A DNA stretch of 64,000 bases from positions 320,001 through 384,000 of the forward strand of contig CAVSSM010000002.1 in assembly GCA_963730605.1 (NCBI GenBank), in the 5' to 3' direction. The notes beneath the pieces were generated by a model. The model did not search any database, was not told where the DNA came from, and saw only the letters and a program-made list of their open reading frames with translations. A program made the translations under genes and the position numbers. Below are positions 20,796-60,181 of this stretch, one piece after another (position 1 is the first letter of the stretch; every line of letters begins with the position of its first letter). This stretch comes from an uncultured Chlamydiae bacterium (GTDB taxonomy: Bacteria > Chlamydiota > Chlamydiia > Chlamydiales > SM23-39).

Positions 20796-20797
20796 TA

Positions 20798-41566: not shown

Positions 41567-41858
41567 TACACAAATGACTTCAAAAGTTGGGAATATGCCG
41601 AGGCTGCGGACACTTGAAAAAGCTCGGGGGTTCGAGCTTTTTCAAGGGAAGCAGCCCTGAATTTGAGCCAGGCCTTGCCGGCGCCGGGTCCGAGGTCCCC
41701 AAAAACGCATCGTTTTTGGGGTGGGCCGTTGCAGCTCAACTTGAAGTTGAGCGCCGGGGTCCCCGAAGACGCATCGTCTTTGGGGTGGGGTGCAGGCGGG
41801 CTCAAAGGCAGTGGCTGTCCGACGAAGGCAGAAACCAACTTTTGAAGTTGTTTGTGTA
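41567..41858. mobile_element. TA-flanked MITE, 292 bp, carrying two 36-bp palindromic modules
   Basis: TIR TACACAAATGACTTCAAAAGTTGG / CCAACTTTTGAAGTTGTTTGTGTA; TA at 41565-41566 and 41859-41860; body homologous to 44284-44557. Confidence 0.9.
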
Positions 41859-41886
41859 TATTGTCCTGATTCCGCAAGATCCGGTC

Positions 41887-43197
41887 ATGGACAGCGCTTT
41901 TCAATTTTTTACGTGGATCAATAATCTCATCTGGGCTTATCTCGCTTTTCTTATGATCGTGGGGATGGGTTTTTATTTTTCAGTCCGCTCCCGCCTATTT
42001 CAAATCAGGCGATTCGGAGGCATCCTCCGGTCGTTTGCCGCCTTCATTACAGAAGCGTCCAGCCACCGACGGGGCATCCATCCTTTGAAAGCCTTTTTTG
42101 CAAGCGTCGGAGGATGTATCGGCATTGGGAATGTGGTCGGGATCTGCACGGCGATCGAAATCGGAGGCCCCGGCGCAATCTTCTGGGCGTGGATCGGAGG
42201 GCTTTGCGGAATGCTGCTCCAATATTCGGAAGTCTATTTGGGATTGAAGTACCGCGTGAAGAGCGAATCCAATAATTACGACGGAGGGCCGATGTACTAC
42301 CTGCCTGTCGCATATAAGAAGAGATGGATCGGGCCAGTCGCGAGCCTCATTTTGGCCATTTATGGCATCGAAATTTTCATGTTCAATGTCATGGCCGATA
42401 GCATGTCGGTCAATTGGCATATCGACCTTTGGATCATCGTCGTCCTTTTGTGCTTTGCGACGTTTGCCGTTGCGATCGGAGGAATCAAGAGGGTCGGGGA
42501 AGTCTGCAGCGCCATCATTCCCTTCTTCATCCTCGTCTATTTCGGGATGTGCGTATGGGTGCTGGCTATCCATTATTCCGAATTGCCGCGCGTGATGCTC
42601 GAGATCTTTTCTGGCGCCTTTACCGCACAAGCTGCCCAGGGCGGATTTGCAGGAAGCACCGTGATGTTGGCCGTCTCGATGGGCTTATCAAGAGGGGCCT
42701 ATTCAGGAGACATCGGCGTGGGGTACACATCAATCATCTATGCCGAAAGCCGGACAAAGCAGTTCCAGCGCCTCTCCTCTCTTGCCATCTTCGGCCTTTT
42801 TCTCGACACGTTCGTCGTTTGCACCTTGAGCGTCCTCGTCGTCTTAACGACCGGCCTTTGGAAATCGGGCATCGACGTCACCCTGATGGTTCAAGAATCG
42901 CTTGCTCTCCACTTTCCCTACATGAACTATTTTATGCCCTTTTTCCTTTTTCTCCTTGGGCTTACGACGATTCTGGCCTACTTCGTCGTAGGGGTCAAAT
43001 GCGCAAAGTTCCTCTCGCCCAAATGGGGGCCGGTTGTCTACTATTGCTATGCCGCCATTTCGCTTCCGCTTTTTGCTTTCACGAAGCCGAACCATGCGTT
43101 CACGATCATGTCGCTCTCTGGCGCTTTGCTTCTTCTTCTCAACCTTTACGGAATCTTTCGGCTGCGTAAAGAAGTTGTGTTCGGGCTCGACGGGTGA
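41887..43197 (+). CDS. alsT: Alanine/glycine:cation symporter (AGCS family)
   Basis: IGIGNVVGI..IEIGGPGAIFWAW, GGPMYY, GGIKRVG, FLDTFVVCT; upstream ORF extension is MITE sequence. Confidence 0.9.
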   Translation: MDSAFQFFTWINNLIWAYLAFLMIVGMGFYFSVRSRLFQIRRFGGILRSFAAFITEASSHRRGIHPLKAFFASVGGCIGIGNVVGICTAIEIGGPGAIFWAWIGGLCGMLLQYSEVYLGLKYRVKSESNNYDGGPMYYLPVAYKKRWIGPVASLILAIYGIEIFMFNVMADSMSVNWHIDLWIIVVLLCFATFAVAIGGIKRVGEVCSAIIPFFILVYFGMCVWVLAIHYSELPRVMLEIFSGAFTAQAAQGGFAGSTVMLAVSMGLSRGAYSGDIGVGYTSIIYAESRTKQFQRLSSLAIFGLFLDTFVVCTLSVLVVLTTGLWKSGIDVTLMVQESLALHFPYMNYFMPFFLFLLGLTTILAYFVVGVKCAKFLSPKWGPVVYYCYAAISLPLFAFTKPNHAFTIMSLSGALLLLLNLYGIFRLRKEVVFGLDG

Positions 43198-43209
43198 TAA
43201 GAAAGAATA

Positions 43210-43605
43210 TTATTTCTTCTTTTGAGATGACACGAAAAACAAAATCGAGCCGACGAGGGCAAATCCTGCCGCGCTTAAATCGGGAAAAGTAATCCAGCCG
43301 AAAAGGGAAAAAATGGGTTTGGCACATTCTCTGCCGCAGATCTGTAAAGAAGGGAAGTGGATGCCGATGGCTTGGAGAAGCGCCACGATCATCCCAAACG
43401 CGCAAAGGGGAATGGCGTAGCCGATCACAGTTCGGTCGTTCCGGTAGGTGCCGACCCCCAGGAGAAGGGCAAGCGGGAAAAGAGCCATCCGCTGATACCA
43501 ACACATGCGGCAAGGCTCGATCATCAGAATCTCTCCGTAGTATAAACTCACCGCGCATCCAAGCAAGACGATGAGCCAGCAAAAATAGAGGAGATTTTTT
43601 TTCAT
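43210..43605 (-). CDS. dsbB: Disulfide bond formation protein DsbB/BdbC
   Basis: EPCRMCWYQR motif, four TM helices. Confidence 0.92.
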   Translation of the reverse strand: MKKNLLYFCWLIVLLGCAVSLYYGEILMIEPCRMCWYQRMALFPLALLLGVGTYRNDRTVIGYAIPLCAFGMIVALLQAIGIHFPSLQICGRECAKPIFSLFGWITFPDLSAAGFALVGSILFFVSSQKKK

Positions 43606-44255
43606 GGACGATCCGCTTTAAGATCCTTCTCGATCTGCAAGGAGATGCTTTCAAAAGAGATATCGGGCATTGGATGGCCATTGATGAAAACAGCCGGGGT
43701 GCGAAGGCTTTTCTTCATCGCTTTTTTCGCCATTTGGTAATTGTGGGCAAGCTCGGTATCATACCGCCTCGTTTTTACGCTGCTCTCAAATTCCTCCAAG
43801 TCGATGGCTTCGAACTTCGCTGCCGCATCGACTAAATCTTTGAATTCCAGGGTTCCATTTGCAAACAAGAGAAAGAGTTCGTGGACGTAAGGAAAGTACA
43901 CTGCAGGCGCTTGATGGTAAACCGCGAGGGCGGCATTGGCAATTTCTTTAGAATGAGACGAAGTGGCAAGAGGCACCATCACATATTTTACGATCCCCCG
44001 ATCGACGTAGGTGGTCTGGATGGCAGGAAATACTTCCATGCTAAAATACCGGCAGGTATGGCAGAGGAAATCCTCGAACACGACCAGTTCGATTTTGGCA
44101 TTTTCAAATCCGATCGAAGGATACCCGTCCCCAATGATGACGAAAGGCCTCCGGTCGAAGACGGCCCTATAAATACTTAAAGCTCCTAAACAGGCGCCGA
44201 AAGCGGCCAATGTGGAGAGGACGAGAAACTTTCTTCTCTTCATGAAAGCATACAT
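43602..44255 (-). CDS. dsbA: DsbA-family thiol-disulfide oxidoreductase
   Basis: FEDFLCHTC and TPAVFING; N-terminal anchor; upstream of dsbB. Confidence 0.85.
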   Translation of the reverse strand: MYAFMKRRKFLVLSTLAAFGACLGALSIYRAVFDRRPFVIIGDGYPSIGFENAKIELVVFEDFLCHTCRYFSMEVFPAIQTTYVDRGIVKYVMVPLATSSHSKEIANAALAVYHQAPAVYFPYVHELFLLFANGTLEFKDLVDAAAKFEAIDLEEFESSVKTRRYDTELAHNYQMAKKAMKKSLRTPAVFINGHPMPDISFESISLQIEKDLKADRP

Positions 44256-44283
44256 ATACTTTCACGGGATTTCTAAGCCACTA

Positions 44284-44557
44284 TACCGAGAGGGATTCAA
44301 AAATCGGAATATGGCAAGGCTGCAGACACTTGAAAAAGCTCGGGGGGTTCGAGCTTTTTCAAGGGAAACAGCCCTGAATTTGAGCCAGGCATTGCCGGCG
44401 CCGGGTCCGGGGTCCCCGAAGACGCAACGTCTTTGGGGTGGGGTGCAGGCGGGACACAAATTCAGTGGCTGCCCGACGCCGCCACCGGGGTCCCCCAAAA
44501 ACGCATCGTTTTGGGGGTGGGGCGCCGCCAGAACCGATTTTTGAATCACGAGTGGTA
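44284..44557. mobile_element. IS630-type MITE, 274 bp, with two palindromic modules, inserted into the 3' end of tyrP
   Basis: Ends TACCGAGAGGGATTCAAAAAT / ATTTTTGAATCACGAGTGGTA match the IS630 TIR; TA at 44282-44283 and 44558-44559. Confidence 0.92.
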
Positions 44558-45730
44558 TAATCCCGCCCACTCGACGCCGAGTTCCAAAATAACGAGAAGG
44601 AAAAGGATAAAAAGAACCCCCCTCCCTCCTCCGAGCTGCAACTTCCCGGAGAGCGGCCGTATTTGGGTATAACGGGCGGAGTAAGACATCAAGATGGGAA
44701 GCAGCACGAGCAAAAGCGAACATCCGATGCCGCCCGCCATCGAAAGGGCCGTAAGAAAGAGGGAAGGATAGATCAAAGCGATGACGGCGGGCGGAGCAAA
44801 AGTCAAAACGGCCAGCAGCAAGCGAGCCCCCCCTTTTTTGGGCCTTTTGAGGCCGTCGGCCAAAAAGTCGAAGAGGCCCAATGTGATGCCTAAAAACGAG
44901 GTTGCGATCGCAAAAAAGGCAAATACTTGCCCGATGGAAGAAATGGCATCTTGGCCGATGCGGGCGCTTAAAGGCGCAACTGCGGTGAAGCCGAATCTCT
45001 TTGCCATTCCGAGCCCCTGCTCCCCTTCAAGGGGAATTGTCCCGAGGATGAGAAATTCCCAGAGCAAATAGATGAGAAAAGCGGCGCTCGTCCCCCCGAT
45101 GATGGAGATTCGGACAAGCTTCGCGTCCCGCTTCAGATAGGCAGTCAAAGTGGGGATAATGCCCTGATAGCTGAAAGAGGTGAAAATCACCGGGATCGCA
45201 AGCCACGATTTCCCCCAGTCGGCTCTTTGCAAAGGGGCCAAGCGGACATGAGGCAGGCAAAAAACGACAAAAGCCACATAGGACAAAATGAGGCCGGCCA
45301 TTAAAACCGAATTGACTTTGTCGACCGCTTTTGCGCCAAAGTAGACGATGGGGGAGAGCAAAGCGAGAAAAAGAAGGACGCCTCCCCAAGGCGGCAAGGC
45401 GCCGCTCGCCCCACGGATGATGCCGCCGCCTCCGGCGAGGTAGGCGACGCTCAGGCAATAAAAAAGGAAAAGATAAAGAACCCAAGCGAAAATTTTCCCG
45501 CCTCGTCCCAAATAAGCGCCGGCCATGGTGATGAGATTGGCTTCTGGGGGCATCTCAAGGCAGATCTCGAGCATGAGGAGGCCTGTGCACGTCATGACTC
45601 CCCAGCAAAGAAGGTAAGTGAAAAAGGAAGGGAGAAAACCCGCTTCGGCGGTCACTACGGGCAACGCCAGCATGCCGGCCCCGATAGCGGTGCCCGTTAC
45701 TAGGAGGATGCCGCTCATGAGCTGTTTCAT
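44546..45730 (-). CDS. tyrP: Aromatic amino acid (tyrosine) permease, HAAAP family
   Basis: LVTGTAIGAGMLALP, FTSFSYQGIIP, AIATSFLG. Confidence 0.9.
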   Translation of the reverse strand: MKQLMSGILLVTGTAIGAGMLALPVVTAEAGFLPSFFTYLLCWGVMTCTGLLMLEICLEMPPEANLITMAGAYLGRGGKIFAWVLYLFLFYCLSVAYLAGGGGIIRGASGALPPWGGVLLFLALLSPIVYFGAKAVDKVNSVLMAGLILSYVAFVVFCLPHVRLAPLQRADWGKSWLAIPVIFTSFSYQGIIPTLTAYLKRDAKLVRISIIGGTSAAFLIYLLWEFLILGTIPLEGEQGLGMAKRFGFTAVAPLSARIGQDAISSIGQVFAFFAIATSFLGITLGLFDFLADGLKRPKKGGARLLLAVLTFAPPAVIALIYPSLFLTALSMAGGIGCSLLLVLLPILMSYSARYTQIRPLSGKLQLGGGRGVLFILFLLVILELGVEWAGLYHS

Positions 45731-45829
45731 AGGTGAAAAGTGTAAAGGAGGCTCGATTTAAAGGGAATTGAGAATTGACTTTTACGAGAGGGTGGACTAC
45801 TCTCTAGAATCAGCTTTATCGAAGAATTC

Positions 45830-47104
45830 GTGGATCCGAAAGTCTATACTGCCGAGCAGCATAAAATTCCTTCCGAAAAAGTCGACCAGCAGGCTTCTTA
45901 CGTCATTGAAAAATTGCGGCAGGCGGGCCATAAGGCATATCTTGTCGGAGGTGGGGTGCGCGATCTTCTTTTGAACGTCCGCCCGAAAGATTTCGACGTC
46001 TCGACCTCCGCTAGCCCCGAGGAGATCCGCAGCCTTTTTCGCAGCGCCATCCTCATTGGCCGCCGTTTTCGCCTCGCCCATGTCCGGTTCGGGAAAAAAG
46101 TGATTGAAGTCTCCACCTTCCGCGCGGGCGATATCGAATCTGCCGAACTCATTGTCCGGGACAATCAATGGGGATCTGAGGAAGAAGACGTGCTGAGGCG
46201 CGATTTCACGATCAATGGCCTTTTCTACGATCCCCATAAAGAAATCGTGATCGATTATGTGGACGGCTATCCGGACATTGAAAAAAGAGTTTTGAGGACG
46301 ATCGGGCAGCCGGAAGCCCGTTTCAGCCAAGATCCTGTCAGGATGATCCGGCTCGTCAAATTCTCAGCCCGTTTCAATTTCGAGATCGACCGGCCCACTT
46401 TCGAAGCGCTTTTGTCTTGCAGAAGGGAGATTATCAAAAGTTCATCGGCCCGCGTCTTTGAAGAGCTGCTTCGCATGCTGGAATCGGGGGCTTCCAAACC
46501 GTTTTTCCATCTCCTCCAAGAATACGGCCTTCTCGCGCCGCTTCTCCCCGAACTTGCCTACTTTTTGGGAAATAAAGAAGATAACGATTTAACTCTCAAA
46601 TTCCTAAGCGAAATCGATGCGGAGATCCAAAAAGGCGAAGGGCTGTCTCCCGATCGAGCGATTCTCGCTGCCGCCCTCGTCTTCCCGCTCTTTGACCGGT
46701 ATTTACGCGAAAGAGCCAAGACGGAAGAGCTCCCTCTTCATTTGGGTCAAATCGGCACGGCGGCCTTTCATGTTATCGACTGTATTTTTTCCCCATTTTT
46801 CAAAATCCCTCGAAGGCTCAGGGCCGTGATGGCGTTCATCTTGACCTCCCAATACCGTTTCATCCCTCTCGATGGGAAAGAGGTCCGACTCCCTCGCCTT
46901 CCCAACGATTCGCTCACCCCGCTGGCTCTCCAACTTTTGAAAATCCGGTCCGCCGTCCAGCCAGAAATTCTTCCTCAATACACTCTTTGGACGGAAGCGG
47001 CCTTCCGCGCTTCCGCGGAAGGTCCGCCAAGAGACGCTGCGGAAGAGGGCGTTAGGCCGCCTCTCCGCCGGCGGCGCCGAAGATCCAGAAGAAGAGGGCC
47101 GTGA
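45830..47104 (+). CDS. pcnB: Poly(A) polymerase I
   Basis: VGGGVRD..PKDFD, PAP signature LIGRRFRLAHV, RRDFTIN. Confidence 0.92.
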   Translation: MDPKVYTAEQHKIPSEKVDQQASYVIEKLRQAGHKAYLVGGGVRDLLLNVRPKDFDVSTSASPEEIRSLFRSAILIGRRFRLAHVRFGKKVIEVSTFRAGDIESAELIVRDNQWGSEEEDVLRRDFTINGLFYDPHKEIVIDYVDGYPDIEKRVLRTIGQPEARFSQDPVRMIRLVKFSARFNFEIDRPTFEALLSCRREIIKSSSARVFEELLRMLESGASKPFFHLLQEYGLLAPLLPELAYFLGNKEDNDLTLKFLSEIDAEIQKGEGLSPDRAILAAALVFPLFDRYLRERAKTEELPLHLGQIGTAAFHVIDCIFSPFFKIPRRLRAVMAFILTSQYRFIPLDGKEVRLPRLPNDSLTPLALQLLKIRSAVQPEILPQYTLWTEAAFRASAEGPPRDAAEEGVRPPLRRRRRRSRRRGP

Positions 47105-47865
47105 TCAACAAAATCGTGAGCCTAGCAGTGACTCCCGACCTCCCCTTGTTTCATTTCGGGCCTCCGCTCGACCATGGACCGCTCCCCTCCTTTTTTTACT
47201 TTGCCCTTTCCGGCCCCGATTCCTTATGTCTCGACCCCTTTAACCAACCTGTCCAATTTCTCCAGGGAAAAATGATCCGGGTTTTTTCTATGACCCTCCC
47301 GGGCCATGAAGCGAACCTTCCAGCGGAAAACGCCATCCTGCTTTGGGCTGAGGATATAGCTCGGGGGATGGACCCGATCGGTTCTTTTCTTGACAATACC
47401 GCCGCTGCCGTCGACTTCGCCATCCGCGAACGGTTCGCCGATCCAAAGAGGCTAGCCGTCGGAGGCCTTTCGCGGGGAGGATTTATCGCGGCGCATGTGG
47501 CCGCCCGCGATGTTAGGTTCCAGTTCCTTCTCGGTTTTGCTCCCTTAACGCGCCTCTCCACCCTCAAAGAATTTGCCTCGATGCGGGATCATCCTCTAAT
47601 CAAAGACCTCGATCTTGAAAATTTGAGCCCTTCTTTGGCGAAGCTTCATAGCCGGTTCTACATCGGCAACCGCGACACTCGGGTAGGGACCCGAGCCTGT
47701 TTTGACTTCGCGATGTCGCTTGTTGAGGCGGCTCATGCCCATAAAATCCGCACCCCGCAAGTCGAATGTTTCATCACCCCGTCGATGGGCCGAGACGGCC
47801 ATGGGACCTCACCGGAAGTATTCCAAGACGGAGCCGCTTGGGTGGCCAAATGCCTACAGCGGTGA
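47101..47865 (+). CDS. Alpha/beta hydrolase
   Basis: GLSRGG nucleophile elbow, Asp (NRDTRV) and His (GHGT). Confidence 0.8.
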   Translation: MINKIVSLAVTPDLPLFHFGPPLDHGPLPSFFYFALSGPDSLCLDPFNQPVQFLQGKMIRVFSMTLPGHEANLPAENAILLWAEDIARGMDPIGSFLDNTAAAVDFAIRERFADPKRLAVGGLSRGGFIAAHVAARDVRFQFLLGFAPLTRLSTLKEFASMRDHPLIKDLDLENLSPSLAKLHSRFYIGNRDTRVGTRACFDFAMSLVEAAHAHKIRTPQVECFITPSMGRDGHGTSPEVFQDGAAWVAKCLQR

Positions 47866-48980
47866 CAGGCGCTGGGGTAGACCTCTTTATTTTAGCGGCG
47901 GAGCCGAGCGGTGATTTGCATGGGGCAAAACTCATCGAAGAGCTCTTGAAGCTTCGTCCAGATCTCCAAATCGCCGCCGTCGCAGGGCCAAGAATGCGCC
48001 GTCTTCCCATCCAAACCCTTTTTCCCATGGAAAGCCTCCAAGTCATGGGCTTCATCGACGTAGCCGTAGCCCTGCCTAGGATTGTGAAACAGTTCTTCGC
48101 CATCCGCCGCAAGATCTTACTGCTAAAACCCAAGGCGGTTCTCTTCATCGATTATCCTGGTTTCAACCTAAGGCTCTCACGGTCGCTGAAGAAAAAAAAT
48201 AACATGTGCCGTCTGATTCATTATATCTGCCCGACCGTCTGGGCGTGGGGGAAGAAGAGGATCCCTCGCATGGCCGAGACGCTCGATCTTCTCCTCGTCC
48301 TTTTTCCCTTCGAAAAAAAGTGTTTCTCATCGACCCCTCTTCGCGTCGAATATGTGGGACACCCTCTTGCCGTGCAAATCCCGCCATTCCCAAGGACACC
48401 TCAGCCGATGCTGGCCCTATTTCCGGGCAGCCGCGAGATCGAGATCGTCCGCAATTTTCCCCTGCAGCTTGCCGCTGCAAAGAAACTTTTAGGAAAAGAT
48501 CCTGGACTCCAGATCGCCGTATCGGTGGCCGAAAGCGCCTTTCTTCCTCTCATCCGTTCGATTGCAAGAGCAACTCCTCTCCAATATTTCCCCGGCGAGA
48601 AGAACTACGAATGGATGAGATCGGCCAAGCTCGCCATCGCAACCTCCGGGACTGTGACCCTCGAATTAGCCCTCCATGAGGTCCCTACCGTCGTCAATTA
48701 CGCCATCCGTCCCCTGGATCTGTTTCTCGCTCAAAAAATTTTTCGAATTAACCTCCCCTTCTACTGCATAGTAAATATTATTTTATCTAAAGCCGCGTTC
48801 CCTGAACTCTTTGGCCCGAACCTCAATGAGAAAAATCTCGAGTTTTGGACGACAGAGCTTTGGTTCAATGATGCGGCGAGGGCCAAAGCGGCGGCAGGAT
48901 GCCAAGAGCTTCGCCAGGCGCTTGGGAACCAAGATGCCAGCCGGGAGGCGGCCCGCGCACTGATCTCTCTCGATTTTTAA
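47850..48980 (+). CDS. lpxB: Lipid-A-disaccharide synthase
   Basis: AEPSGDLHG, IDYPGFN, PTVWAW, VGHPL, PGSR, SGTVTLE. Confidence 0.96.
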   Translation: MPTAVTGAGVDLFILAAEPSGDLHGAKLIEELLKLRPDLQIAAVAGPRMRRLPIQTLFPMESLQVMGFIDVAVALPRIVKQFFAIRRKILLLKPKAVLFIDYPGFNLRLSRSLKKKNNMCRLIHYICPTVWAWGKKRIPRMAETLDLLLVLFPFEKKCFSSTPLRVEYVGHPLAVQIPPFPRTPQPMLALFPGSREIEIVRNFPLQLAAAKKLLGKDPGLQIAVSVAESAFLPLIRSIARATPLQYFPGEKNYEWMRSAKLAIATSGTVTLELALHEVPTVVNYAIRPLDLFLAQKIFRINLPFYCIVNIILSKAAFPELFGPNLNEKNLEFWTTELWFNDAARAKAAAGCQELRQALGNQDASREAARALISLDF

Positions 48981-49008
48981 CCGCTTCTTCTTGTATACTC
49001 CCTAGCTT

Positions 49009-49473
49009 ATGCAGGAGATGTTTAAAATTTGGGTCGACCGCCTCAAGGGTGGTCAAGTTCAAAAGATCGAGAGATCTTTTGATCCTTCCTTTCTTGAGAT
49101 TGATGAGAAGGAGCTCAAATTCCGTGTCCCGGTCCAGGTGGACGGAGAGGCCTATCTTGCCGATCAGCATTTGGTCATCCGCCTCAAGGCTCGGACAAAC
49201 GCGACCCTTCCTTGCGTGATCTGCAATAAAATGATGGATACGGAATTGAAAGTAGAAAATTTTTATCACGCGGTAGGCATCGAAGAGATCGCAAACGCCG
49301 TGTTCGATTTCGCTGCGCCGCTCCGAGAGGCTCTCCTCATCGAGCTGCCCAACTATTTTGAATGCCGCGAAGGCAATTGTCCTGAGCGCGAGAGCTTGGC
49401 GCCTTATTTGCGTTTGAGCCCAAAGACGGATGGGAAGAAAAACCTTCCCTTCGCTGACTTAGAAAAAAATTAG
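49009..49473 (+). CDS. yceD: YceD/DUF177 family protein
   Basis: CxxC (PCVICN), LREALLIELP, upstream of rpmF. Confidence 0.85.
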   Translation: MQEMFKIWVDRLKGGQVQKIERSFDPSFLEIDEKELKFRVPVQVDGEAYLADQHLVIRLKARTNATLPCVICNKMMDTELKVENFYHAVGIEEIANAVFDFAAPLREALLIELPNYFECREGNCPERESLAPYLRLSPKTDGKKNLPFADLEKN

Positions 49474-49488
49474 GAGAATGATCATACT

Positions 49489-49668: not shown

Positions 49669-49673
49669 ACAAT

Positions 49674-50687
49674 TTGTCGGCTCGTAAACAATTTGTCGGC
49701 GTTGATTTGATGGGGAGCGACAATGTCCCGGCGGCACTCCTCTCTGCTGCGGCATCGCTTTCTCCATTTTTGCCGTCCCATATCGAACTCATCGCTATCG
49801 GCACTCCCGATTGCGAAAAAGAGGCAAGATCTCACGGTTTGCATTTTCAGGCGGCGCTCGAAGCGATTGGGATGGAAGAAAGTCCCCTCTTGGCACTCCG
49901 CAGGAAGAAGCAATCTTCCCTTTGCGTCGGTTTACGGCTCGTGAAAGAAGGGAAGCTCGATGCCTTCGTCTCCGCCGGCAATACGGGCGCTCTCGTCAGC
50001 GCATCAAAAATGATCCTCGGCACCTTCCGAGATATTTCGAGGCCGGCGCTCCTGGCCCTCATGCCGACCAAGAAGCGGCCCGTCGCAGTCCTTGACGTAG
50101 GAGCCAACCTCCAGGCGAAAGCATCCCAACTCGTTCAATTCGCGCATCTTGGCGCCGCCTATCAGAAAGCCCGGGGCATATCGGAGCCCAGAATTGGCAT
50201 CTTGAACATTGGCTCGGAAGCCTCGAAAGGGACCTCGGAGATCCGCCTCGCATATAAAGAGCTGTCAAAGCTGCCGGCGTTTGCAGGCAATATCGAAGGG
50301 AAATCGGTCTTTGACGGAGATGTCGACGTATTAGTGACCGACGGCTTCACCGGCAACATATTTTTGAAAACCGCCGAAGGGATCGCGAATCTGGTCCTTG
50401 ACCGGCTCCATGCCCGTATCCCGCCCTCCCCTCTCCCACCCCAAAGACGATGCGTCTTCGGGGACCCCGGTTCGGAAATCCAGGTCCATCTCGATGATCT
50501 GCAGCGGCATCTCCATTATGCCGAATACCCGGGCGCGCTCCTCTGCGGCGTCAAAGGGGCGGTCGTCAAATGCCATGGCTACTCGACACCGGAAGCCTTC
50601 GCGAACGGGATAAGAGGGGCTATCGAATTTGCCTCCGCCCATTTCATCACCATCCTCCAGAATCAACTGTATACCGAAAAAACCTGA
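49674..50687 (+). CDS. plsX: Phosphate acyltransferase PlsX (carries an in-frame 12-aa palindrome-derived insert)
   Basis: VDLMGSD, VSAGNTGA, RPAL, LDVGAN, LNIGSE..KG, VTDGFTGNI.LK, VKCHG. Confidence 0.96.
   Translation: MSARKQFVGVDLMGSDNVPAALLSAAASLSPFLPSHIELIAIGTPDCEKEARSHGLHFQAALEAIGMEESPLLALRRKKQSSLCVGLRLVKEGKLDAFVSAGNTGALVSASKMILGTFRDISRPALLALMPTKKRPVAVLDVGANLQAKASQLVQFAHLGAAYQKARGISEPRIGILNIGSEASKGTSEIRLAYKELSKLPAFAGNIEGKSVFDGDVDVLVTDGFTGNIFLKTAEGIANLVLDRLHARIPPSPLPPQRRCVFGDPGSEIQVHLDDLQRHLHYAEYPGALLCGVKGAVVKCHGYSTPEAFANGIRGAIEFASAHFITILQNQLYTEKT
50435..50470. repeat. 36-bp palindromic module inside the plsX coding sequence
   Basis: CCCACCCCAAAGACGATGCGTCTTCGGGGACCCCGG is the exact reverse complement of 41754-41789. 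Confidence 0.95.
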
Positions 50688-51697: not shown

Positions 51698-51891
51698 TCC
51701 ATCGAATCGTTTTAGGGGAATGGGGGTAGTGAGCGCCTAAAAGGCCGAGAGATCTCCGCAGCCGTAGTCAGCCCCGGCGGTCTAAATGGCTAAAATTTTT
51801 AATGAGGCAGTCCCGCATTCCTCTATGGGGTTGCAAAAGAAGGAGGGTTAGTCTATCCTTAATGCAGTCGTGTGAAGGCGGATGCGGATTT

Positions 51892-53433
51892 ATGCATGAA
51901 ATTTTACTCAACGTCGAATCGAAAGAGGTTCGCTACGCATACCTGAAACATGGCCTCCTGTATGACTTAGTCCTCGACCGGAAAAAATCGCGCCAGATCA
52001 CCGGAAATATCTATCGGGGACGGGTCACCAATATCCTCCACAATATCCAATCTGCCTTCATCGATATCAACGAAGGGGAAAACGGATTCATCCACATCAG
52101 CGACATCCTCGAGAATACGAAAAAATTCGAAGAGATGTTCGAGATGGACTTCGATCTGGATTATGACATCTCGAAGATGAGCCCAAGCCCAAAAGCGAAG
52201 GATATCGCGCAGCTTTTGAAGATCGACCAACCCGTCTTGGTCCAGGTCGTCAAGGAGCCGATCGGGACTAAGGGAGCGCGCCTCACCTCGAATATTTCGA
52301 TCGCAGGCCGCTATCTCGTCATGCTTCCGAATAACCCGCATAGAGGCGTGTCGCGGAAAATCGAAGATAAAGAGGCAAGAGAGAGGCTAAAAAAACTCAT
52401 CCGTTCCTTTGAAATGCCCCAGGATATGGGCCTCATCTGCCGCACTGCAAGCGCAGGCGCCACGACCGAAATGCTCGTCGAAGAGGCCACCGACCTCCTC
52501 CATTCTTGGCAAACGATCGTCGATAAATTTCACAAGTCAAGCGGTCCCACCCTCCTTTACGAAGAATCGGACCTAATCAAGCGGGCGGTCATCCAATGCG
52601 TCGACAAAAAATTTGAAAGGCTTCTCATCGACGATTACTCCACGTATCAACGATGCAAACAAATCTATCAGAAATATGCATCCGAACATCCGCTCAAGAT
52701 CGAATTCTACCGCGACAAGCCCCCCATGTTCGAGAGATTCAACGTCGAAAAAGAAATCGATAGGGCCGTGCGCCGCAAGATTTGGCTGGGGTCGGGCGGT
52801 TACCTCTTTTTCGATCGCACCGAAGCGATGCATACGATCGACGTCAACTCGGGCCGCAGTTCGATGAACCTACAGGGAAGCGACGTCGAAGAAACTCTCG
52901 TGCGGATCAACCTGGAAGCCGCCGATGAAATCGCAAGGCAATTGAGGATCCGCAACATCGGAGGGCTCATCATCTGCGATTTCATCGACATGCGCTCTCG
53001 CAAAAACCAAAAGCGGGTGTTGGAGCGGCTGAAAGAATGCATGAAAGACGATTCGGCCAAGTGCACCATTTTGGGAATGAGCGAATTCGGCCTCATCGAA
53101 ATGACTAGGCAAAGAAGCCGCGAATCCCTCTCTCAAACCATCTATACGGGCTGCCCTTACTGCTTAGGCAGCGGCTTAGTGAAAAGCCACGAGAGCGTTT
53201 CGGTCGATATCGAACGGTCTTTGAAAAAGCTGATCCTTTGCCAAAACCAGTACGCCCTAAAGCTGGTGACCCACCCTGAATTGAACCGCTATCTCGATAA
53301 CGGCGACAAAGATTATTATGTCAAGGTCGCCGGCATTTCGAACGCGCATCTGGAATTCGGGGTCAATGACAACCTTCATCTCAACGAATATCTATTTTAC
53401 TCGACGCTGAATGGACAAAAAATCGACGCATGA
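51892..53433 (+). CDS. rne: Ribonuclease E/G
   Basis: S1 domain GNIYRGRV..AFIDI, QVVKEPIGTKGARLT, IDVNSG, DFIDM, EMTRQR. Confidence 0.96.
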   Translation: MHEILLNVESKEVRYAYLKHGLLYDLVLDRKKSRQITGNIYRGRVTNILHNIQSAFIDINEGENGFIHISDILENTKKFEEMFEMDFDLDYDISKMSPSPKAKDIAQLLKIDQPVLVQVVKEPIGTKGARLTSNISIAGRYLVMLPNNPHRGVSRKIEDKEARERLKKLIRSFEMPQDMGLICRTASAGATTEMLVEEATDLLHSWQTIVDKFHKSSGPTLLYEESDLIKRAVIQCVDKKFERLLIDDYSTYQRCKQIYQKYASEHPLKIEFYRDKPPMFERFNVEKEIDRAVRRKIWLGSGGYLFFDRTEAMHTIDVNSGRSSMNLQGSDVEETLVRINLEAADEIARQLRIRNIGGLIICDFIDMRSRKNQKRVLERLKECMKDDSAKCTILGMSEFGLIEMTRQRSRESLSQTIYTGCPYCLGSGLVKSHESVSVDIERSLKKLILCQNQYALKLVTHPELNRYLDNGDKDYYVKVAGISNAHLEFGVNDNLHLNEYLFYSTLNGQKIDA

Positions 53434-54418
53434 AATCCTTTTAGCTGATGCGCTCGAAGACCTGAAGGGAAAAATACCCGGCAAATACTACACGATCGTC
53501 GTAGAGTTCATCGCATGCTATCGCGAAGCGGTCCGAGCCCTTTTCGATGAGGCGATCCCCAATCTTCTTCTTTTCCTCCAGCTTGCCCGGAGGCAGTTCG
53601 AGGCCCCCTTTTCTTTCGAACCTTACCATAAGAAAATCCGGCACCCGGTCGACTACTATCGCTTTTCTCTCGATTTCATTCGGCCCCTTGTCGATCTCGA
53701 CCGCTCTTCCATCTTGGGTCTGGAATATCTCGAAGAGGCGGCAATTGGCCTCTGCAAAGGGGAAAATGCCATCCTCTTGGCGAACCATCAAACTGAGCCG
53801 GACCCGCAGGCGATTTCGATCCTCTTGGAAAAAACGCACCCTGAAATTGCCGAAAAGATCATTTACGTTGCCGGAGAACGGGTAATCACAGATCCCTTGG
53901 CAGTCCCCTTCAGCATGGGCTGCGATTTGATCTGCATCTATTCGAAACGGTACATAGACAATCCGCCCGAATTAAAAGCAAAAAAGCAGCTGCATAATAA
54001 AAACACCATGAAACAAATGAGCGATCTACTCGAACTGGGAGGGCGGATGATCTACGTCGCGCCGAGCGGTGGGCGAGACCGGAGAAACGCCAAAGGCATC
54101 GTTGAAGTCGCCCCTTTCGACGCCGCAAGCATCGAAATGTTCTATCTCATGGTAAAAAAAGCGAAACGGCCAACTCGCTTCATCCCATTTGCCCTCTCTA
54201 CCTACGACCTTCTTCCCCCTCCAGAAGCGATCCAAAGGGAACTCGGCGAAGTCAGGAAAGCGAAACGGACGCCGATCTCGATTTCTTTCGCCCCGCCGTT
54301 CGACATGGAGCATTTTCCAGGATCGGATGTTGAAGACCGAATTGAAAGGCGAGAAAACCGCGCTCGTAAAATATGGGCCATTGTAAATACAATGTATACA
54401 CGGATGGTAAAGCGATGA
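53411..54418 (+). CDS. plsB: Glycerol-3-phosphate acyltransferase, plastid/chlamydial type
   Basis: NHQTEPDP (HxxxxD), PFSMG, VAPSGGRDR, YDLLPPP. Confidence 0.92.
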   Translation: MDKKSTHEILLADALEDLKGKIPGKYYTIVVEFIACYREAVRALFDEAIPNLLLFLQLARRQFEAPFSFEPYHKKIRHPVDYYRFSLDFIRPLVDLDRSSILGLEYLEEAAIGLCKGENAILLANHQTEPDPQAISILLEKTHPEIAEKIIYVAGERVITDPLAVPFSMGCDLICIYSKRYIDNPPELKAKKQLHNKNTMKQMSDLLELGGRMIYVAPSGGRDRRNAKGIVEVAPFDAASIEMFYLMVKKAKRPTRFIPFALSTYDLLPPPEAIQRELGEVRKAKRTPISISFAPPFDMEHFPGSDVEDRIERRENRARKIWAIVNTMYTRMVKR

Positions 54419-57402
54419 AATGCAGTGGGCGAGAGCGAACGAAATGCGATCCTGCCTCAGGATCGAACTACAGTTTCCGAAGGAATCCTATAAAATATCT
54501 CCTTTTTGTAATCGCCTTGAGCGGCAGCTTGGGCTTTTCTCATGAGAAGCAGAGCTTCCAGGGCGAAATTCCCGATGCCTCAGGGTTGCCGCTCTTGGGC
54601 CGCGATTTTTCGGAGAGGAAAACGCTGAAAATGCGCCTTGACAATGGATTAGAACTCCTCTTGATTTCCGATCCGCGCGCTGAAAATTCCGCTGCGGCAG
54701 TTTCTGTGGGAGCCGGGTCTTGGAACGATCCCGCTGAATTTCCCGGAATGGCTCATTTCTGCGAGCATATGCTATTCATGGGAACCCAAAAATATCCGGA
54801 TGAAAATGAATTCATGGCAAAAGTCTCAGATCAGGGTGGCAAGACCAATGCTATGACCGCGTCGGATCGGACGATCTACATGTTCTCCTCCCATCCCGAA
54901 GGCTTTCCCTCCCTTCTCGACCGGTTCGCCCATTTTTTCATCGACCCTCTTTTCAAACCTTCCAATATCTCCCGAGAGCTGCACGCGGTCGACCAGGAAT
55001 TTGCGAAAAATGTGGAGAACGACGGATGGAGGCTGTCGATGATTCTCAAAGAAACGGGCAACCCCGTCCATCCGAACAGGATGTTCAATTGCGGCAATTC
55101 CGAAACGCTTTCCCACATCCCTCAAAGCGCTCTCCAAAAATGGCATAAACAGCACTACAGCGCAAACCGGATGCACGCCATCCTTTTTTCCTCGTTAAAG
55201 ATAGAAACCCTCCGGGATATAGCTCTCGCTTGCTTTGGCAAAGTCCCCCAATCTCCCGCTCCTGCCTCCATCGATCCTTCCCTTCCCCTCACCTCCCCCG
55301 AGCAGCGCGGCCATATCACCTACGTCAAGCCTGTGCAAAATAAAAATAGCTTGCTTTTGCTCTGGGAGCTTCCCCTTTCCCTCTCTGAGGACCCCACCCA
55401 ATCGGCAGCCCTCATCGCCTATGCCTTGAACCGGGGACAGAAACAAAACCTTTATGAAAAGTTGAAAGAGGAGGAGCTCATCGACAGCCTTTTGGTGGAA
55501 GTCGAAGAGATGGGAGGCCGCCAACATAAGTTCTTTGAAATTTCCCTGGAACTGACTGAGAAAGGGATGAAAATGGTAGACCAAGTCCTGCTTCGGGTTT
55601 TCCAATCGATCGCTCTCATTCAGTCGACAGGCATTCCGAACTATCTCTTTCACGAAAAAAACACTCTTGCCCAAATCAAGTACCAATACCAAAGCCGTCA
55701 AGAAGCTTTTGAGTTTGTGATGCAGCTCGCGTTGACCCTGCCAGACGAGCCGCTCGAAACCTATCCGAAACAGCAACTGCTCTCCTCAGCATTCTCGCCG
55801 AAAATGATCTCGGAGGCAGCCTCTTTTTTGACTCCCGACCGGTGTGCCTTTCTTCTTCTTAGCTCGCCCTCTTTGACCGGGGTTGTCCCCGACCGGATGG
55901 AAAAATGGCTAGGCGCCGAATATGCGATCCGCCCCATTCCGGCCGATTGGATGAATGCTTTGACCAAAGCTACGCCTCATCCTCAAATTCGCCTCCCTGA
56001 GCCGAACCCCTTCGCTCCGGCCCAGATGAACCTTGTCTCCGAACCGCCCCCTAGGGTAAGTCCCCTTCTCATTTCAAAAAATGAAAACGGGATCGCCTAT
56101 TTCTCCCGCTGCCCCGAGTTCAAGAATCCCGAAGCCGCCATCCGGATCCATATCCTAGCGCCAGAACTTAAGCCCTCGCCTCGCTCGCAAGTCCTCGTCT
56201 CTCTTTTCTCTGCTCATTTCACCGATATCCTCCATCCGGTTTTGGCCGCCGCCGCTGAAGCGAACCTCACCGCCTCTATTACAGCGGAAAGATGCCGCAT
56301 CCACATCAAAATCGACGGATTCAGCGAAAAATCGACTGTTCTCCTTCAAGAAATCCTCCAACGCCTCCCCCTCCCGCCACCAACCCCTGAACAATTCGAA
56401 AACCTCGTAGCGGCAGCGGAAAAAGAATACTCTAATGCGCAAAAAGATCTCGCCTTCCGTCAGGCAAAAGATCTCTTGGATTCTTTGATCAACCAAGATA
56501 AGGCGACGAAAAAAGAGAAATTAGCGGCCCTCAAAGGGATCCAATACGACGATTTTCTCGCCTTTCAAAAAAACGTCTTTGAGAAGACCTATATCGAAGC
56601 GCTTTTCTCCGGCAATCTCACTCTGAAAGAGGCCGAATCGGCTTGGCTCGACGTGATCCATGTCTTGGGAAAAACTCCGTTCCAAAAAAGAGAACATCCC
56701 CAGACCTTCGTCGCCCAGCTTCCCGACCGCCCTCATTCGATCGCCGAAACCACCGAGGCGCAAGGCAATTCGACGCTCCTATTGATTGACGAGGGGCCAT
56801 TTACTCTTCAAAAGCGCGCCGCCCAGGAGATCCTCTCAAGCGCTTTGAAAGAGGCGTTCTTTCAAGAGCTGAGGACGCGGCAAAAAACCGGCTATTTCGC
56901 AAGCGCGGAGTGTCAGGAGCTCGAAGAGCGCCTCTATCAAATGTTCATCGTGCAATCGAATTCGCACCAGCCGGAAGACCTTCTCTACCGCTATGAGCTG
57001 TTCCTCGAAGAGTTCCTCGAGGATTTCTCCCATAAAATCCCGAAAGAAAGATTCGCTACACTGCAAGAGAGCGCCGCCGCCCAGCTCAAAAACCGGTTCT
57101 GCAATCTGAAAGAAAAAAGCGCGCTCTTAGACCTTCTCGCCTTCCAATACCGGGGCGATTTCCAGTTCGTCGACAAGAGGATCTTAGCGATCCGAAACCT
57201 CTCCTATGAAGAATTTTGCGAATTCGCATCGGAATTTCTCGCGCGGAGCAACAAAAAGCGACTTGCGATCCTCTTCGAGGGCAAGCTCGCATCCCCTTTC
57301 GCCTACGAGTCGACAACCCCGGCCGAGTTAACGGAAATCTCCACCTATGCGCCCAAGCCGGAAAAGCTGGCCGAAGAGAGCTCCTCCGTTTCTGCGGAAT
57401 GA
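54415..57402 (+). CDS. ptr: Insulinase-family (M16) metalloprotease Ptr
   Basis: GMAHFCEHMLFMGT.KYP inverted zinc motif, ELRT.Q.TGY; ATGA overlap with plsB. Confidence 0.93.
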   Translation: MKCSGRERTKCDPASGSNYSFRRNPIKYLLFVIALSGSLGFSHEKQSFQGEIPDASGLPLLGRDFSERKTLKMRLDNGLELLLISDPRAENSAAAVSVGAGSWNDPAEFPGMAHFCEHMLFMGTQKYPDENEFMAKVSDQGGKTNAMTASDRTIYMFSSHPEGFPSLLDRFAHFFIDPLFKPSNISRELHAVDQEFAKNVENDGWRLSMILKETGNPVHPNRMFNCGNSETLSHIPQSALQKWHKQHYSANRMHAILFSSLKIETLRDIALACFGKVPQSPAPASIDPSLPLTSPEQRGHITYVKPVQNKNSLLLLWELPLSLSEDPTQSAALIAYALNRGQKQNLYEKLKEEELIDSLLVEVEEMGGRQHKFFEISLELTEKGMKMVDQVLLRVFQSIALIQSTGIPNYLFHEKNTLAQIKYQYQSRQEAFEFVMQLALTLPDEPLETYPKQQLLSSAFSPKMISEAASFLTPDRCAFLLLSSPSLTGVVPDRMEKWLGAEYAIRPIPADWMNALTKATPHPQIRLPEPNPFAPAQMNLVSEPPPRVSPLLISKNENGIAYFSRCPEFKNPEAAIRIHILAPELKPSPRSQVLVSLFSAHFTDILHPVLAAAAEANLTASITAERCRIHIKIDGFSEKSTVLLQEILQRLPLPPPTPEQFENLVAAAEKEYSNAQKDLAFRQAKDLLDSLINQDKATKKEKLAALKGIQYDDFLAFQKNVFEKTYIEALFSGNLTLKEAESAWLDVIHVLGKTPFQKREHPQTFVAQLPDRPHSIAETTEAQGNSTLLLIDEGPFTLQKRAAQEILSSALKEAFFQELRTRQKTGYFASAECQELEERLYQMFIVQSNSHQPEDLLYRYELFLEEFLEDFSHKIPKERFATLQESAAAQLKNRFCNLKEKSALLDLLAFQYRGDFQFVDKRILAIRNLSYEEFCEFASEFLARSNKKRLAILFEGKLASPFAYESTTPAELTEISTYAPKPEKLAEESSSVSAE

Positions 57403-57421
57403 CCGTTCGATGCGTCTTCCC

Positions 57422-57676
57422 TCACGTGTGCCGGCTTAAGTGAGCGAGAATCTCAGCCGTTTTTTCTTTGGAAAACTCGTCTCCGTAAAATCGCAAGAAA
57501 AGCTGCTGCTTCAGTTCCACTTTAGAAATCCCAGGGTTTTCCCTCAAAATCGCTTGCGTCACGAGATACCTTGAAGCATCATACATCTCACATCCCATCC
57601 TAAGACGCTCCTCTGGCGTTTTCTTTCTAAAAATTTCGTGCACTTTCTCTTCAATTTCTGGAGATGTATCATTCAT
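57422..57676 (-). CDS. Small helical protein, putative antitoxin (MenA1/Rv0078B-like)
   Basis: TPEERLRMGCEMY...RENP...E; ATGA-coupled to the upstream nucleotidyltransferase. Confidence 0.6.
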   Translation of the reverse strand: MNDTSPEIEEKVHEIFRKKTPEERLRMGCEMYDASRYLVTQAILRENPGISKVELKQQLFLRFYGDEFSKEKTAEILAHLSRHT

Positions 57677-58221
57677 CGCGGATTAACCTTTGCATAAACT
57701 TCGTTCAAATTCAATTGCAGAACCCATTGATTAATGTATTTTAGGTCGAGGTTTTGAATGGCTCCCATGAGATTTCTGACATCTTTTATTTGTAAATCAG
57801 AAAAACTGTCTTTGGCCCAATAAAGTTTAGAAATAATCAGGTCTTCGGGAGAAACAATCCATATTTTTACCCCATCGAATTCAATTTGGCGCCGCCTTTG
57901 AAATTCAATGCTCCGATAAGGCATATCTTTCCTAATAATAAAATCGACTTTAAATCCAGAATCGTTGTGAATAATATTAAACATCGTCTCAAATTTAATC
58001 GCTTCAAAAATGGAATCTTTGGCGATATAAAAATCGTCTTGAAAAACTCGAAAAACCTTATTCACCTCGAGATTCATAATTTCAATGACTATATCAATAT
58101 CCCGTGTCATGCGTGGGACTGCATAAAAGTGAGCCGCAAGAGAGCCTGTTAGCATGTAGGGCATTCCAGCATGGTCCAACTTACGACAAACAGACTTTAA
58201 AAGTTCGATTTCTTGAGTCAT
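57673..58221 (-). CDS. Nucleotidyltransferase (AbiEii/MenT-like), putative toxin
   Basis: YMLTGSLA..Y..PRMTRDID, VDF, SPEDLIISKL, QIKDV. Confidence 0.75.
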   Translation of the reverse strand: MTQEIELLKSVCRKLDHAGMPYMLTGSLAAHFYAVPRMTRDIDIVIEIMNLEVNKVFRVFQDDFYIAKDSIFEAIKFETMFNIIHNDSGFKVDFIIRKDMPYRSIEFQRRRQIEFDGVKIWIVSPEDLIISKLYWAKDSFSDLQIKDVRNLMGAIQNLDLKYINQWVLQLNLNEVYAKVNPR

Positions 58222-58278
58222 GATCTTTCGAATTTACCTCTAATGGAAAATGAAGTCAAAAAACAAGCGACAGAAACA

Positions 58279-59133
58279 TCAGGCACCCAAATTGGTCATG
58301 GCGGCCTCGCTGGGCTGGGAGCGCGCTGTTACACAGTCCATCCGCTTTTGAAGCCGCCTCACTGCGACACAGCCCAATACGGCAGTGAATGCTGAGAGGA
58401 CCCAAAAACTGTGCCAGAAGGGAATGTATCCCTCTTGGCCTAAAGCCGCGGCCCTCATTCCTTCCATGACGTAGAGAAACGGGTTGATGAGATGGGCGAT
58501 CCCGACCGCAGGAGAAAGATCATAGACTGTCTGCCACGAATACAACCATGCGCCAAAGATATTCATTGGGTTGATGACCCGGGTGAGAAGATGACCCAGG
58601 CTGCTTATATTTTTCATCATGCTGCAGAGCCAAAGGGCAAAAAACCCTAAGAACAAATGACTCGCGATGAAGATGAGCGGGAGCTTAAACCAACTGATCT
58701 TCCCTAAATCGAATTGCGTGAACAAGATCAACTTCCCCAAAGGAAACATAAGAAGAGCGATGATCGACCAAATGATCGCCCATGAGACCGCTATGTAGAC
58801 GAAGACGAGCCAGGATGGGATCGGCAAAGACAAGGTATAGAGAATCGTCCGGTCTCCTTCCATATCTGCAATCATCATGCTGACCTTCCCGATCACTTCA
58901 AAAAATCCATATCTGCCGATGGCCCCGATCAAAACAAAAGAGCCGTAATCGGCAGGGAGCCCATAGGAAGGAAGAATGTAGGCGAAAACCGAGACGGTCG
59001 CGAAAAGCAAAATCCCCGCATCGATGGATTTTCCCCAAAATTCTCCTTTGAACACGGCGAGATCGCGCCGGATCAACTGCGCGGCGGTGGATAAGAAGTC
59101 GGCATATCGGGAAATCTTCTTACTCTGCAGCAT
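58279..59133 (-). CDS. ABC-2 type transporter permease
   Basis: About six TM helices, INPFLYVMEGMR. Confidence 0.88.
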   Translation of the reverse strand: MLQSKKISRYADFLSTAAQLIRRDLAVFKGEFWGKSIDAGILLFATVSVFAYILPSYGLPADYGSFVLIGAIGRYGFFEVIGKVSMMIADMEGDRTILYTLSLPIPSWLVFVYIAVSWAIIWSIIALLMFPLGKLILFTQFDLGKISWFKLPLIFIASHLFLGFFALWLCSMMKNISSLGHLLTRVINPMNIFGAWLYSWQTVYDLSPAVGIAHLINPFLYVMEGMRAAALGQEGYIPFWHSFWVLSAFTAVLGCVAVRRLQKRMDCVTARSQPSEAAMTNLGA

Positions 59134-59866
59134 ATTCGGGCACCTTGATCAGTTTGAGAAACACATCTTCAAGACGATGCATTTGATGGCGATATTTCAA
59201 GTTGGCCGGCGTGTCGAGGGCAATGACAGCTCCGGCGTCAATAATGCAAACCCGGTCTGAAAGGGCTTCAGCTTCATCAAGATAATGAGTCGTGAGCAGG
59301 ATCGAGGCCCCCTCTTTTTTCATCGCTCTGATCCCTTCCCATAACTGATGTCGGACATGCGGATCGAGGCCGACCGTGGGCTCGTCGAGGATGATGAATT
59401 CCGGCGAATGAATCAATGTCCGGGCGATCAAGAACCTTTGCTTATATCCCCCTGAGAGAATGGAAGCTTTCGCCTTGGCATATTGATGCAGGTCGAACTG
59501 ATCCATCAAGACATCGATCCGAGCGCGGATCTTTTTCTCTCTCATCCGGTGATATCTTCCGGCAAACGAGAGATTTTCTTCCAGTGTCAAGGAGAGGTCG
59601 AGATTTGGCTTTTGCGGGCAGAAGCCGACATTTTTCCGGTAGGAGACGACATCTTTATAAATTGACTCGCCTCGGTACAGCACATCCCCCCCGCTGCACG
59701 GGTGGAGGGCGGCTAAAATGTTAGAGAGGGTCGTCTTGCCGGCGCCGTTGACGCCCAAAAGTCCGAAAACTTCTCCTTCGCACATGTCGAAGGAAATCCC
59801 CTTCAGCGCCTCCTTGACAAAGTTTTTGTCTTGGTAGCGCTTCTTCACCGATCGCAACTGGATCAA
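59120..59866 (-). CDS. ABC transporter ATP-binding protein
   Basis: GVNGAGKTT, LSGG, LDEPTVGLDP, TTHY. Confidence 0.95.
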   Translation of the reverse strand: MIQLRSVKKRYQDKNFVKEALKGISFDMCEGEVFGLLGVNGAGKTTLSNILAALHPCSGGDVLYRGESIYKDVVSYRKNVGFCPQKPNLDLSLTLEENLSFAGRYHRMREKKIRARIDVLMDQFDLHQYAKAKASILSGGYKQRFLIARTLIHSPEFIILDEPTVGLDPHVRHQLWEGIRAMKKEGASILLTTHYLDEAEALSDRVCIIDAGAVIALDTPANLKYRHQMHRLEDVFLKLIKVPEYAAE

Positions 59867-59941
59867 ACTTTGACTCGTAAAGACTCACACATAAAATAGC
59901 GCGAAGAAATCCCCCACGGACAAACACCTTTTTCTAAGGCA

Positions 59942-60181
59942 TACCGCTCGTGATTGAAAAATCGGTTCTGGCGGCGCCCCACCCCAAAAACGATGCGTTT
60001 TTGGGGACCCCGGTGGCGGCGCCCCACCCCAAAAACGATGCGTTTTTGGGGACCCCGGTGGCGGCGTCGGACAGCCACTGAATTTGTGTCCCGCCTGCTT
60101 CCCTTGCAAAAGAGCGAACCCCCGCTCTTTTGAAAGTGTCCGCAGCTTTGCCATATTCCGATTTTTGAATCCCTCTCGGTA
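59942..60181. mobile_element. IS630-type MITE, 240 bp, opposite orientation, with a tandem pair of 36-bp modules
   Basis: Left end TACCGCTCGTGATTGAAAA (1 mismatch to the IS630 end), right end TTTTGAATCCCTCTCGGTA; TA on the right flank, CA on the left. Confidence 0.92.

Follow-up and report, generated by a model that had tools for sequence, protein, structure and literature searches.

The question addressed here is whether a palindromic module of about 36 bases is a mobile element in its own right and, if so, what moves it. The module occurs seven times in a stretch of 64,000 nucleotides (the window) from an uncultured Chlamydiae bacterium (GenBank assembly GCA_963730605.1, contig CAVSSM010000002.1, positions 320,001 to 384,000), six times within transposable elements of the miniature inverted-repeat kind (MITEs) and once within plsX. 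A first-pass annotation of the window had described it as an independently mobile unit that parasitizes MITEs and can add peptides to proteins. We find it almost certain that the module moves independently. As to the means, we tentatively favor, with a confidence somewhat short of even, copying in of a folded strand with a probable nick by a GxxExxY nuclease.

The window belongs to a 2.2-Mb assembly that is 83% complete (G000). A relaxed search of this genome returned 172 copies of the module, which a set of seven repeat seeds, combined with a simple gene finder based on hexamers, divided into 97 in larger repeats and 75 free. A stricter structural search retained 125 copies, compared with 1 in each of two Markov-shuffled genomes; a covariance model accepted 140 among the 150 candidates scored, and the module pattern gave 0 matches in 100 shuffles. 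Among the free copies, 51 are in predicted coding sequence (26 open reading frames (ORFs), one doubtful and one a duplicate) and 24 are intergenic. The host ORFs are predictions, with PlsX alone confirmed by a family scan; further hosts presumably resemble MurC-Ddl, MurG, PriA, NAD kinase and acetate kinase.

Filled and empty sites were compared with a sister genome (G003), of which 1.38 Mb of roughly 1.7 Mb was compared at ~90% nucleotide identity. An alignable ortholog was found there for 57 of 115 module clusters. At the 34 free loci with an ortholog, the module is absent from the sister genome in 22 cases and present in 12, not always in the same place, and the reverse also occurs, with G003 holding inserts that are missing from G000. 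One MITE site in G000 is filled in 28 of 45 flank matches, and the other 17 include 6 plainly empty paralogs. The 75 free copies and the empty alleles in both directions bear out the proposal of an independently mobile unit that parasitizes MITEs; in the genome data the plsX copy is not the only free one, empty sites exist and the module has consistent ends, as a covarying outer stem shows. Were the free copies deletion remnants of IS630 MITEs, the 97 of 172 copies within larger repeats would be readily accommodated, but clean gains of 33-51 nt come without MITE ends, MITE paralogs are empty at a site that is filled elsewhere, the hosts are many and unrelated, the window IS630 contains no module, and IS630 matches occur in only 5 of 27 module-bearing genomes. 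This explanation is largely refuted by the empty-site alleles and is hardly credible.

Length differences between the two genomes are multiples of 3 at 22 of 23 coding loci compared with 4 of 11 intergenic loci (P = 0.0004), the sole coding exception spanning an N gap. The reading frame is thus preserved in coding sequence, which suggests that selection acts on the host genes while they carry the insert. The addition of peptides to proteins is seen in plsX, where the copy gives 12 extra residues relative to most of 29 other aligned plsX loci. The variant at this site is CCCA..GG in G000, and in G003 it is T6..GCCCC, read in a different frame; excision of either 36-mer restores an identical sequence, and the insertion points are 3 nt apart. 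Judged from these sequences, the double state may reflect either two insertions or a replacement, and on either reading the module alone would have to be mobile. The plsX insert aligns with the amphipathic peptide 253-261 of Bacillus subtilis PlsX, which anchors that protein to the membrane (PMC6702220). In another genome (G020, locus L014), plsX is split in two frames near the same loop and lacks the module, which may be an assembly error.

The gains read by eye in alignments measure ~26-27 nt beside a pre-existing CCCC and 33-51 nt elsewhere. Their direct repeats range from none to 8-9 nt, the longest in a MITE, and partial tail duplications occur at junctions. No common target dinucleotide was seen among the junctions read, which are blurred by ~10% divergence. 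Given the varied insert lengths and the duplications, copy-in fits better than cut-and-paste at a fixed target. The inner hairpin of one orthologous site points in opposite directions in G000 and G003, which fits template switching. Free clusters crowd together, with 14 of 46 within 3 kb compared with 5.2 expected (P = 0.0065), and tandem arrays of the module reach 10 units.

Ten tandem 36-nt units at G000 C5:65878-66231 add 120 residues immediately behind a signal-peptide-like start and are absent in G003. At G000 C4:66421-67444, four copies lie around a tRNA gene, and G003 has other variants and numbers at the same places.

The core of the module reads CCCC-N6-G-ATG-C-N6-GGGG-R-CCCC, a fixed 30-nt frame with variable stem letters, and 152 of the 173 G000 copies without gaps have an ATG loop. 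Around the core, a further stem of 2 bp covaries and closes an internal loop of 1x5, which confirms the module boundaries drawn in the first-pass annotation. In a metagenome scan in which the stem letters were free and the remaining core letters were fixed by the pattern, at least 120 loci matched, of an estimated ~1100 stretches. Among the matches listed, 117 of 123 pair at 4 or more of 6 stem positions (chance 3.9%), and only 12 have a stem and GC content that suggest a chlamydial origin. As to the outer stem of the matches counted, 52 have GC-A..GC, 49 have CC-A..GG and 1 is mixed, the rest being scattered. In a hand-picked alignment of 30 sequences, 96.9% of cells pair, and for 8 of 13 pairs both partners have changed. 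An Rfam scan of window positions 41400-60300 gave only a chance match (E = 0.7) and no family.

The mismatches are asymmetric between the strands. On the ATG strand of the metagenome matches there are 61 A.C mismatches compared with 3 G.T, that is, G.T wobble on the opposite strand. Distinct G000 variants have the same asymmetry (67 vs 21), partly favored by the search pattern, and at their pattern-neutral C/G pairs C.A outnumbers T.G by 25 to 10 (P = 0.017). This wobble asymmetry shows that one strand folds, namely the one that reads GGGG-Y followed by a hairpin with a CAT loop. The 5' tag on the folding strand is GGGG-Y and not GTAG, and GTAG-tagged hairpins were found in G000 at background rate only. 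The absence of stop codons in six frames, to which attention had been drawn earlier, is true of all seven window copies and of 131 of 173 genomic cores, but all six frames are likewise open in 24% of sequences with shuffled bases and in 33% of those shuffled with the palindrome preserved, so the property is unremarkable and was rejected as an adaptation. No single conserved peptide is encoded, with five of the six reading frames used by in-gene copies.

Beyond this genome, the module was found in 27 of 103 genomes of one chlamydial family and in none of 332 genomes of other chlamydial families. The exact module stands in records under the titles Chlamydiales, Chlamydiae, Chlamydiia, Parachlamydiales or uncultured bacterium, and in two assemblies titled Verrucomicrobia, in which its flanks resemble chlamydial MITEs. 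Metagenome contigs carry the same shape with other stem letters and encode proteins distant from those of G000. On the single non-chlamydial contig with an assigned taxon, IlvC is 85-87% identical to three named matches, from Pyrinomonadaceae or Acidobacteriota. Viral contigs gave no module match, and phage and plasmid records gave only chance matches.

The hosts include several unrelated repeat families, and in-frame hosts in metagenomes are a thymidylate synthase and a SpoIID-domain gene. One copy, with an imperfect 5-nt duplication, is in the anticodon loop of a tRNA-Arg(TCG) at ~2455-2570 of locus L331; this tRNA gene, missed by ARAGORN, is additional to the array of 25 tRNA genes at L331 50-5637. 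Some copies are nested, either in the module's own loop or in that of a sister hairpin sharing its tail; the orientation is the same in 8 of 9 nested cases among 288 copies, and the ninth is ambiguous.

It is conceivable that no dedicated mover exists and that the module spreads by spontaneous template switching, its uniformity being kept by a conserved host protein that binds the hairpin. A mobile gene is indeed absent beside the copies (no recurring gene family was found beside the metagenome copies), and local clustering, inversion and tail duplications fit polymerase slips. Selfish spread is argued, however, by the patchy distribution (27 of 103 genomes in the family, 0 of 332 in other chlamydial families), by the fast turnover between sister species, and by the copies in the tRNA loop and in enzyme loops. 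We consider movement without a mover distinctly unlikely.

Candidate movers were counted in the 27 module-bearing genomes and in the other 76 genomes of the same family, which are related and incomplete, so that P values for these comparisons overstate the associations. The first-pass annotation had proposed a transposase of the HUH class, such as a repetitive extragenic palindrome (REP)-associated tyrosine transposase (RAYT), located elsewhere in the genome. The module would then be a REP of unusual type that is moved by a Y1/HUH transposase (a RAYT or a tyrosine transposase associated with terminal inverted repeats, TIRYT), with GGGG as the 5' guide. Its folding is strand-specific, and the folding strand consists of a 4-nt tag, 1 nt and a hairpin with a 3-nt loop, as in group 3 REPs (PMC8266576); RAYT models (PMC3333891) yield variable flanks and tandem growth; and TIRYT repeats share GGGGWS, with TIRYTs occurring in Acidobacteria. 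For 29 of 44 free clusters (P = 0.049) the sequence of the folding strand is also that of the leading strand (lagging template), but this bias is marginal and confounded with gene direction. No RAYT scored over the cut-off in five module-rich genomes, the presence of Y1 does not follow that of the module (9 of 27 vs 28 of 76), no Y1 was found among 100 ORFs beside metagenome copies, and no junction dinucleotide is shared at the sites read. The proposed transposase is not supported, and we regard a Y1/HUH mover as unlikely. The only Y1 match in G000 is a broken IS605 piece without the module. This tnpA/tnpB remnant is at L031 1500-2400 (G000 C2 about 395 kb), beside a gene that we take to be gmhA.

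On an RNA route, a stable hairpin RNA would be cut out of MITE transcripts, and the reverse transcriptase of a group II intron would copy it into breaks. RNA typically has one-strand wobble pairs and a conserved internal loop, and target-primed copying typically leaves variable duplications. G000 holds three group II introns of ~1.95 kb (C1:285-288 kb, C4:1-1938 and C8:29770-31716), which were recently active, to judge from their near-identity, and group II intron enzymes are reported to do microhomology end joining (bioRxiv 10.1101/2022.03.14.484287). Reverse transcriptase does not track the module, however (4 of 27 vs 16 of 76), a hand count of copies by transcribed strand gave no clear bias (25 of 41, P = 0.21), and DNA templates suit the local clustering better. 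An RNA intermediate is improbable.

Other candidates were tried and rejected. IS630 does not track the module (5 of 27 vs 27 of 76), IS110 was found in 0 of 5 genomes and Ku in 2 of 5. A search for stand-alone GIY-YIG proteins gave one long, UvrC-sized match in each of five genomes, which we take to be UvrC. An inverted pair of modules in G049 proved to be two separate MITEs around ordinary genes.

A GxxExxY nuclease, to our knowledge a small and unstudied enzyme, is present in 23 of the 27 module-bearing genomes (3 of the 23 matches being weak fragments) and in 26 of the other 76. At one locus (L435), each of the two inverted arms contains the module, which overlaps the start of a PDDEXK_3 ORF and also provides its stop codon, so that GxxExxY cassettes are hosts and possible vehicles. 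Gene-less repeats of a comparable kind carry the module in other genomes. At loci L425-L444, GxxExxY genes are flanked by several types of inverted arms, some of which contain a sister hairpin whose loop is ATG and whose tail is ACCCC.

The explanation that we tentatively favor is as follows. The element is a mobile hairpin of ~35 bases that carries no gene, has its ends, loop and GGGG-Y bulge fixed, and occupies sites left empty in the sister species. One folded strand of it is likely copied into single-stranded DNA at nicks, for example in the loops of hairpins. The foremost, though unproven, candidate for making the nick is a GxxExxY (PD-(D/E)XK) nuclease that acts in trans, and a protein would recognize the loop and bulge of the module. 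The nick would expose a 3' end, which would pair over a few bases with a nearby copy, often C-runs with G-runs; a host polymerase would then copy the hairpin plus some donor flank and return. MITEs and GxxExxY cassettes would carry the module onward, including between phyla. Variable lengths, microhomology, local clustering, inversion and same-strand nesting all fit the copying of a folded single strand into nicks. A bolder version seems doubtful to us: a cross-phylum hyperparasite of 35 nt, mobilized by GxxExxY nucleases, that would ride cassettes between soil Acidobacteria and chlamydiae, target the loops of hairpin elements, of tRNAs and of itself, and repeatedly rewrite enzyme loops such as the PlsX membrane anchor.

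Several observations weigh against this explanation. The GxxExxY protein is a candidate only. In genomes that are related and incomplete, the association may mark only repeat-rich lineages; 26 genomes have the nuclease and no module, and 4 module-bearing genomes have no match. Among the 20 GxxExxY loci examined, L435 is the only one with the module in its arms. The GxxExxY gene of G000 (C5:26566-27054) has arms of its own without the module, and a GxxExxY fragment in G020 is merely ~300 nt from two copies. GxxExxY as mover is thus an inference, and its cassettes may only be hosts. Four-helix-bundle genes are enriched as well (8 of 27 vs 4 of 76), yet were rejected as the mover with no match in G000 or G003. 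The folding test for hairpin targets was weak, with 66% compared with 44-48% for free G000 sites and elsewhere little gain over swapped flanks. An automatic junction fit was noisy and partly mis-fitted and gave no clean result at 10 G000 sites. Compensatory changes can also arise by template switching without selection.

The known kinds that come closest are cyanobacterial small dispersed repeats (SDRs), intragenic REPs and Rickettsia palindromic elements (RPEs). The SDRs of Nostocaceae reportedly treated by Elhai et al. in 2008 are said to be ~20 nt long, to be kept by compensatory changes and to lie inside mini-transposons and their own copies, and have no known mover. The module shares the compensatory change and the nesting in mini-transposons and in itself that are said of SDRs, and like them it is very small, gene-less, dispersed and probably mobile. 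By description it differs in its length (~35 vs ~20 nt), in its occurrence in a chlamydial family and Acidobacteria and in its candidate nuclease. The term SDR and the placement of SDR5 in Nostocaceae follow PMC5861425, PMC2884548 and PMC3116915.

Like REPs and REPINs, as characterized in PMC3733652, PMC8266576, PMC3333891 and PMC6006769, the module is a multi-copy hairpin of 20-40 nt with a short unpaired tag at the 5' foot, clusters and occasional in-frame copies, and, by its mismatch asymmetry, one strand appears to form the fold. Unlike REPs, its tag is GGGG-Y rather than GTAG/GTGG 0-2 nt 5' of the stem, it has an extra 2-bp outer stem, and no repeat-flanked RAYT gene was found in the genomes searched, which are incomplete. 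Unlike REPINs, copies are mostly single or head-to-tail rather than inverted doublets, and they nest in other repeats. TIRYT repeats have GGGGWSAS in inverted repeats around a Y1 gene, whereas the module reads GGGGTCCC and has no Y1 between copies. The module recalls RPEs (PMC10969869, PMC3733652) in that it inserts in frame into housekeeping genes that are unrelated to one another, in a bacterium of intracellular type, but it measures ~35 nt rather than the about 150 nt of the classic RPE, with no single conserved peptide and no CGTC tag. It also lacks the insertion sequence terminal inverted repeat and TA duplication of IS630-derived MITEs, which hold for MITEs 2 and 3; such MITEs are one host class, carrying the module to new sites. 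The element therefore falls outside REP/RAYT, TIRYT, classic RPE and IS630 MITE as these are defined. Palindromes of small size that lie in frame have been described before (PMC3733652). The literature searched, which comprised open papers without their supplements, gave no account of this element, and the REP tables in the supplement of PMC3733652 could bear on novelty.

The features of the window are given in Table 1. All seven copies in the first-pass annotation were recovered with their lengths (six of 36 nt and one of 37 nt) and spacings (28, 42 and 9 nt), as was the direct repeat CGCCGCCA/TGGCGGCG that brackets copies at 44477/44523 and at 59969/60014/60059. The degenerate copy reported near 28538 is present, but scores only 19.7 bits (E ~0.004) compared with 44-61 bits for the seven. 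Of the three MITEs described as homologous, MITEs 2 and 3 share an IS630 right end, but MITE 1 has different ends, so the homology is partial. IS630 MITEs are only one among many host types.

Table 1. Module copies, their host elements and related features in the window
Feature	Position	Strand	Basis
Module copy, in MITE 1	41690..41725	- (ATG-loop strand)	pattern and covariance model
Module copy, in MITE 1; site empty in some paralogous MITEs	41754..41789	-	covariance model
Module copy with TTG loop, in MITE 2	44407..44442	-	covariance model
Module copy, 37 nt, in MITE 2; flanked by 8-nt direct repeats at 44477-44484 and 44523-44530	44485..44521	-	
Free module copy, in frame in plsX (+12 aa)	50435..50470	+	
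Module copy, first of two 45-nt tandem units, MITE 3	59978..60013	+	
Module copy, second tandem unit, MITE 3; 8-nt repeat at 59969, 60014 and 60059	60023..60058	+	
Degenerate copy, upstream of mutS	28534..28567	-	weak covariance-model match
plsX host gene	49674..50687	+	family scan
Host MITE 1, TATACACAAA-type ends, unlike the window's IS630 ends	41565..41860	.	
Host MITE 2, IS630 right-end type	44282..44559	.	
Host MITE 3, IS630 right-end type; not at the orthologous G003 site	about 59941..60183	.	
IS630-family element, without module; likely mover of MITEs 2 and 3	19677..20797	-	

At the MITE 3 site, a contig of run X5 skips 242 nt. One contig extends 30 letters into the plsX copy with no mismatch, a single letter under the threshold for bridging, and is left uncounted since it may derive from the source sample. 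The IS630 element has identical copies at window 1423-2543 and 19677-20797 and 14 near-identical copies genome-wide. The MITEs also hold a second hairpin module (window 41613-41646 and about 60103-60135) with a GGGGTT/AACCCC loop, whose stems differ between copies in a compensated way. At window 818-3196 and 4416-6985 there are 300-nt repeats broken by IS630, together with two related ORFs with Pro-Thr repeats.

The wider question is how very small palindromes such as SDRs, RPEs and CGTC REPs spread without a cognate transposase; CGTC REPs apparently have none (PMC3733652). The ends of the module are sharp, covariation defines its fold, the folding strand is known, both filled and empty alleles exist and the candidate enzymes are few, and the question of spread is therefore testable with oligonucleotides. 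It also provides recurrent additions of 9-17 residues to housekeeping enzymes, twice in the equivalent of the B. subtilis PlsX membrane-anchor loop. If true, a hyperparasite mobilized by GxxExxY nucleases would be the first worked mechanism for SDR/RPE-type elements.

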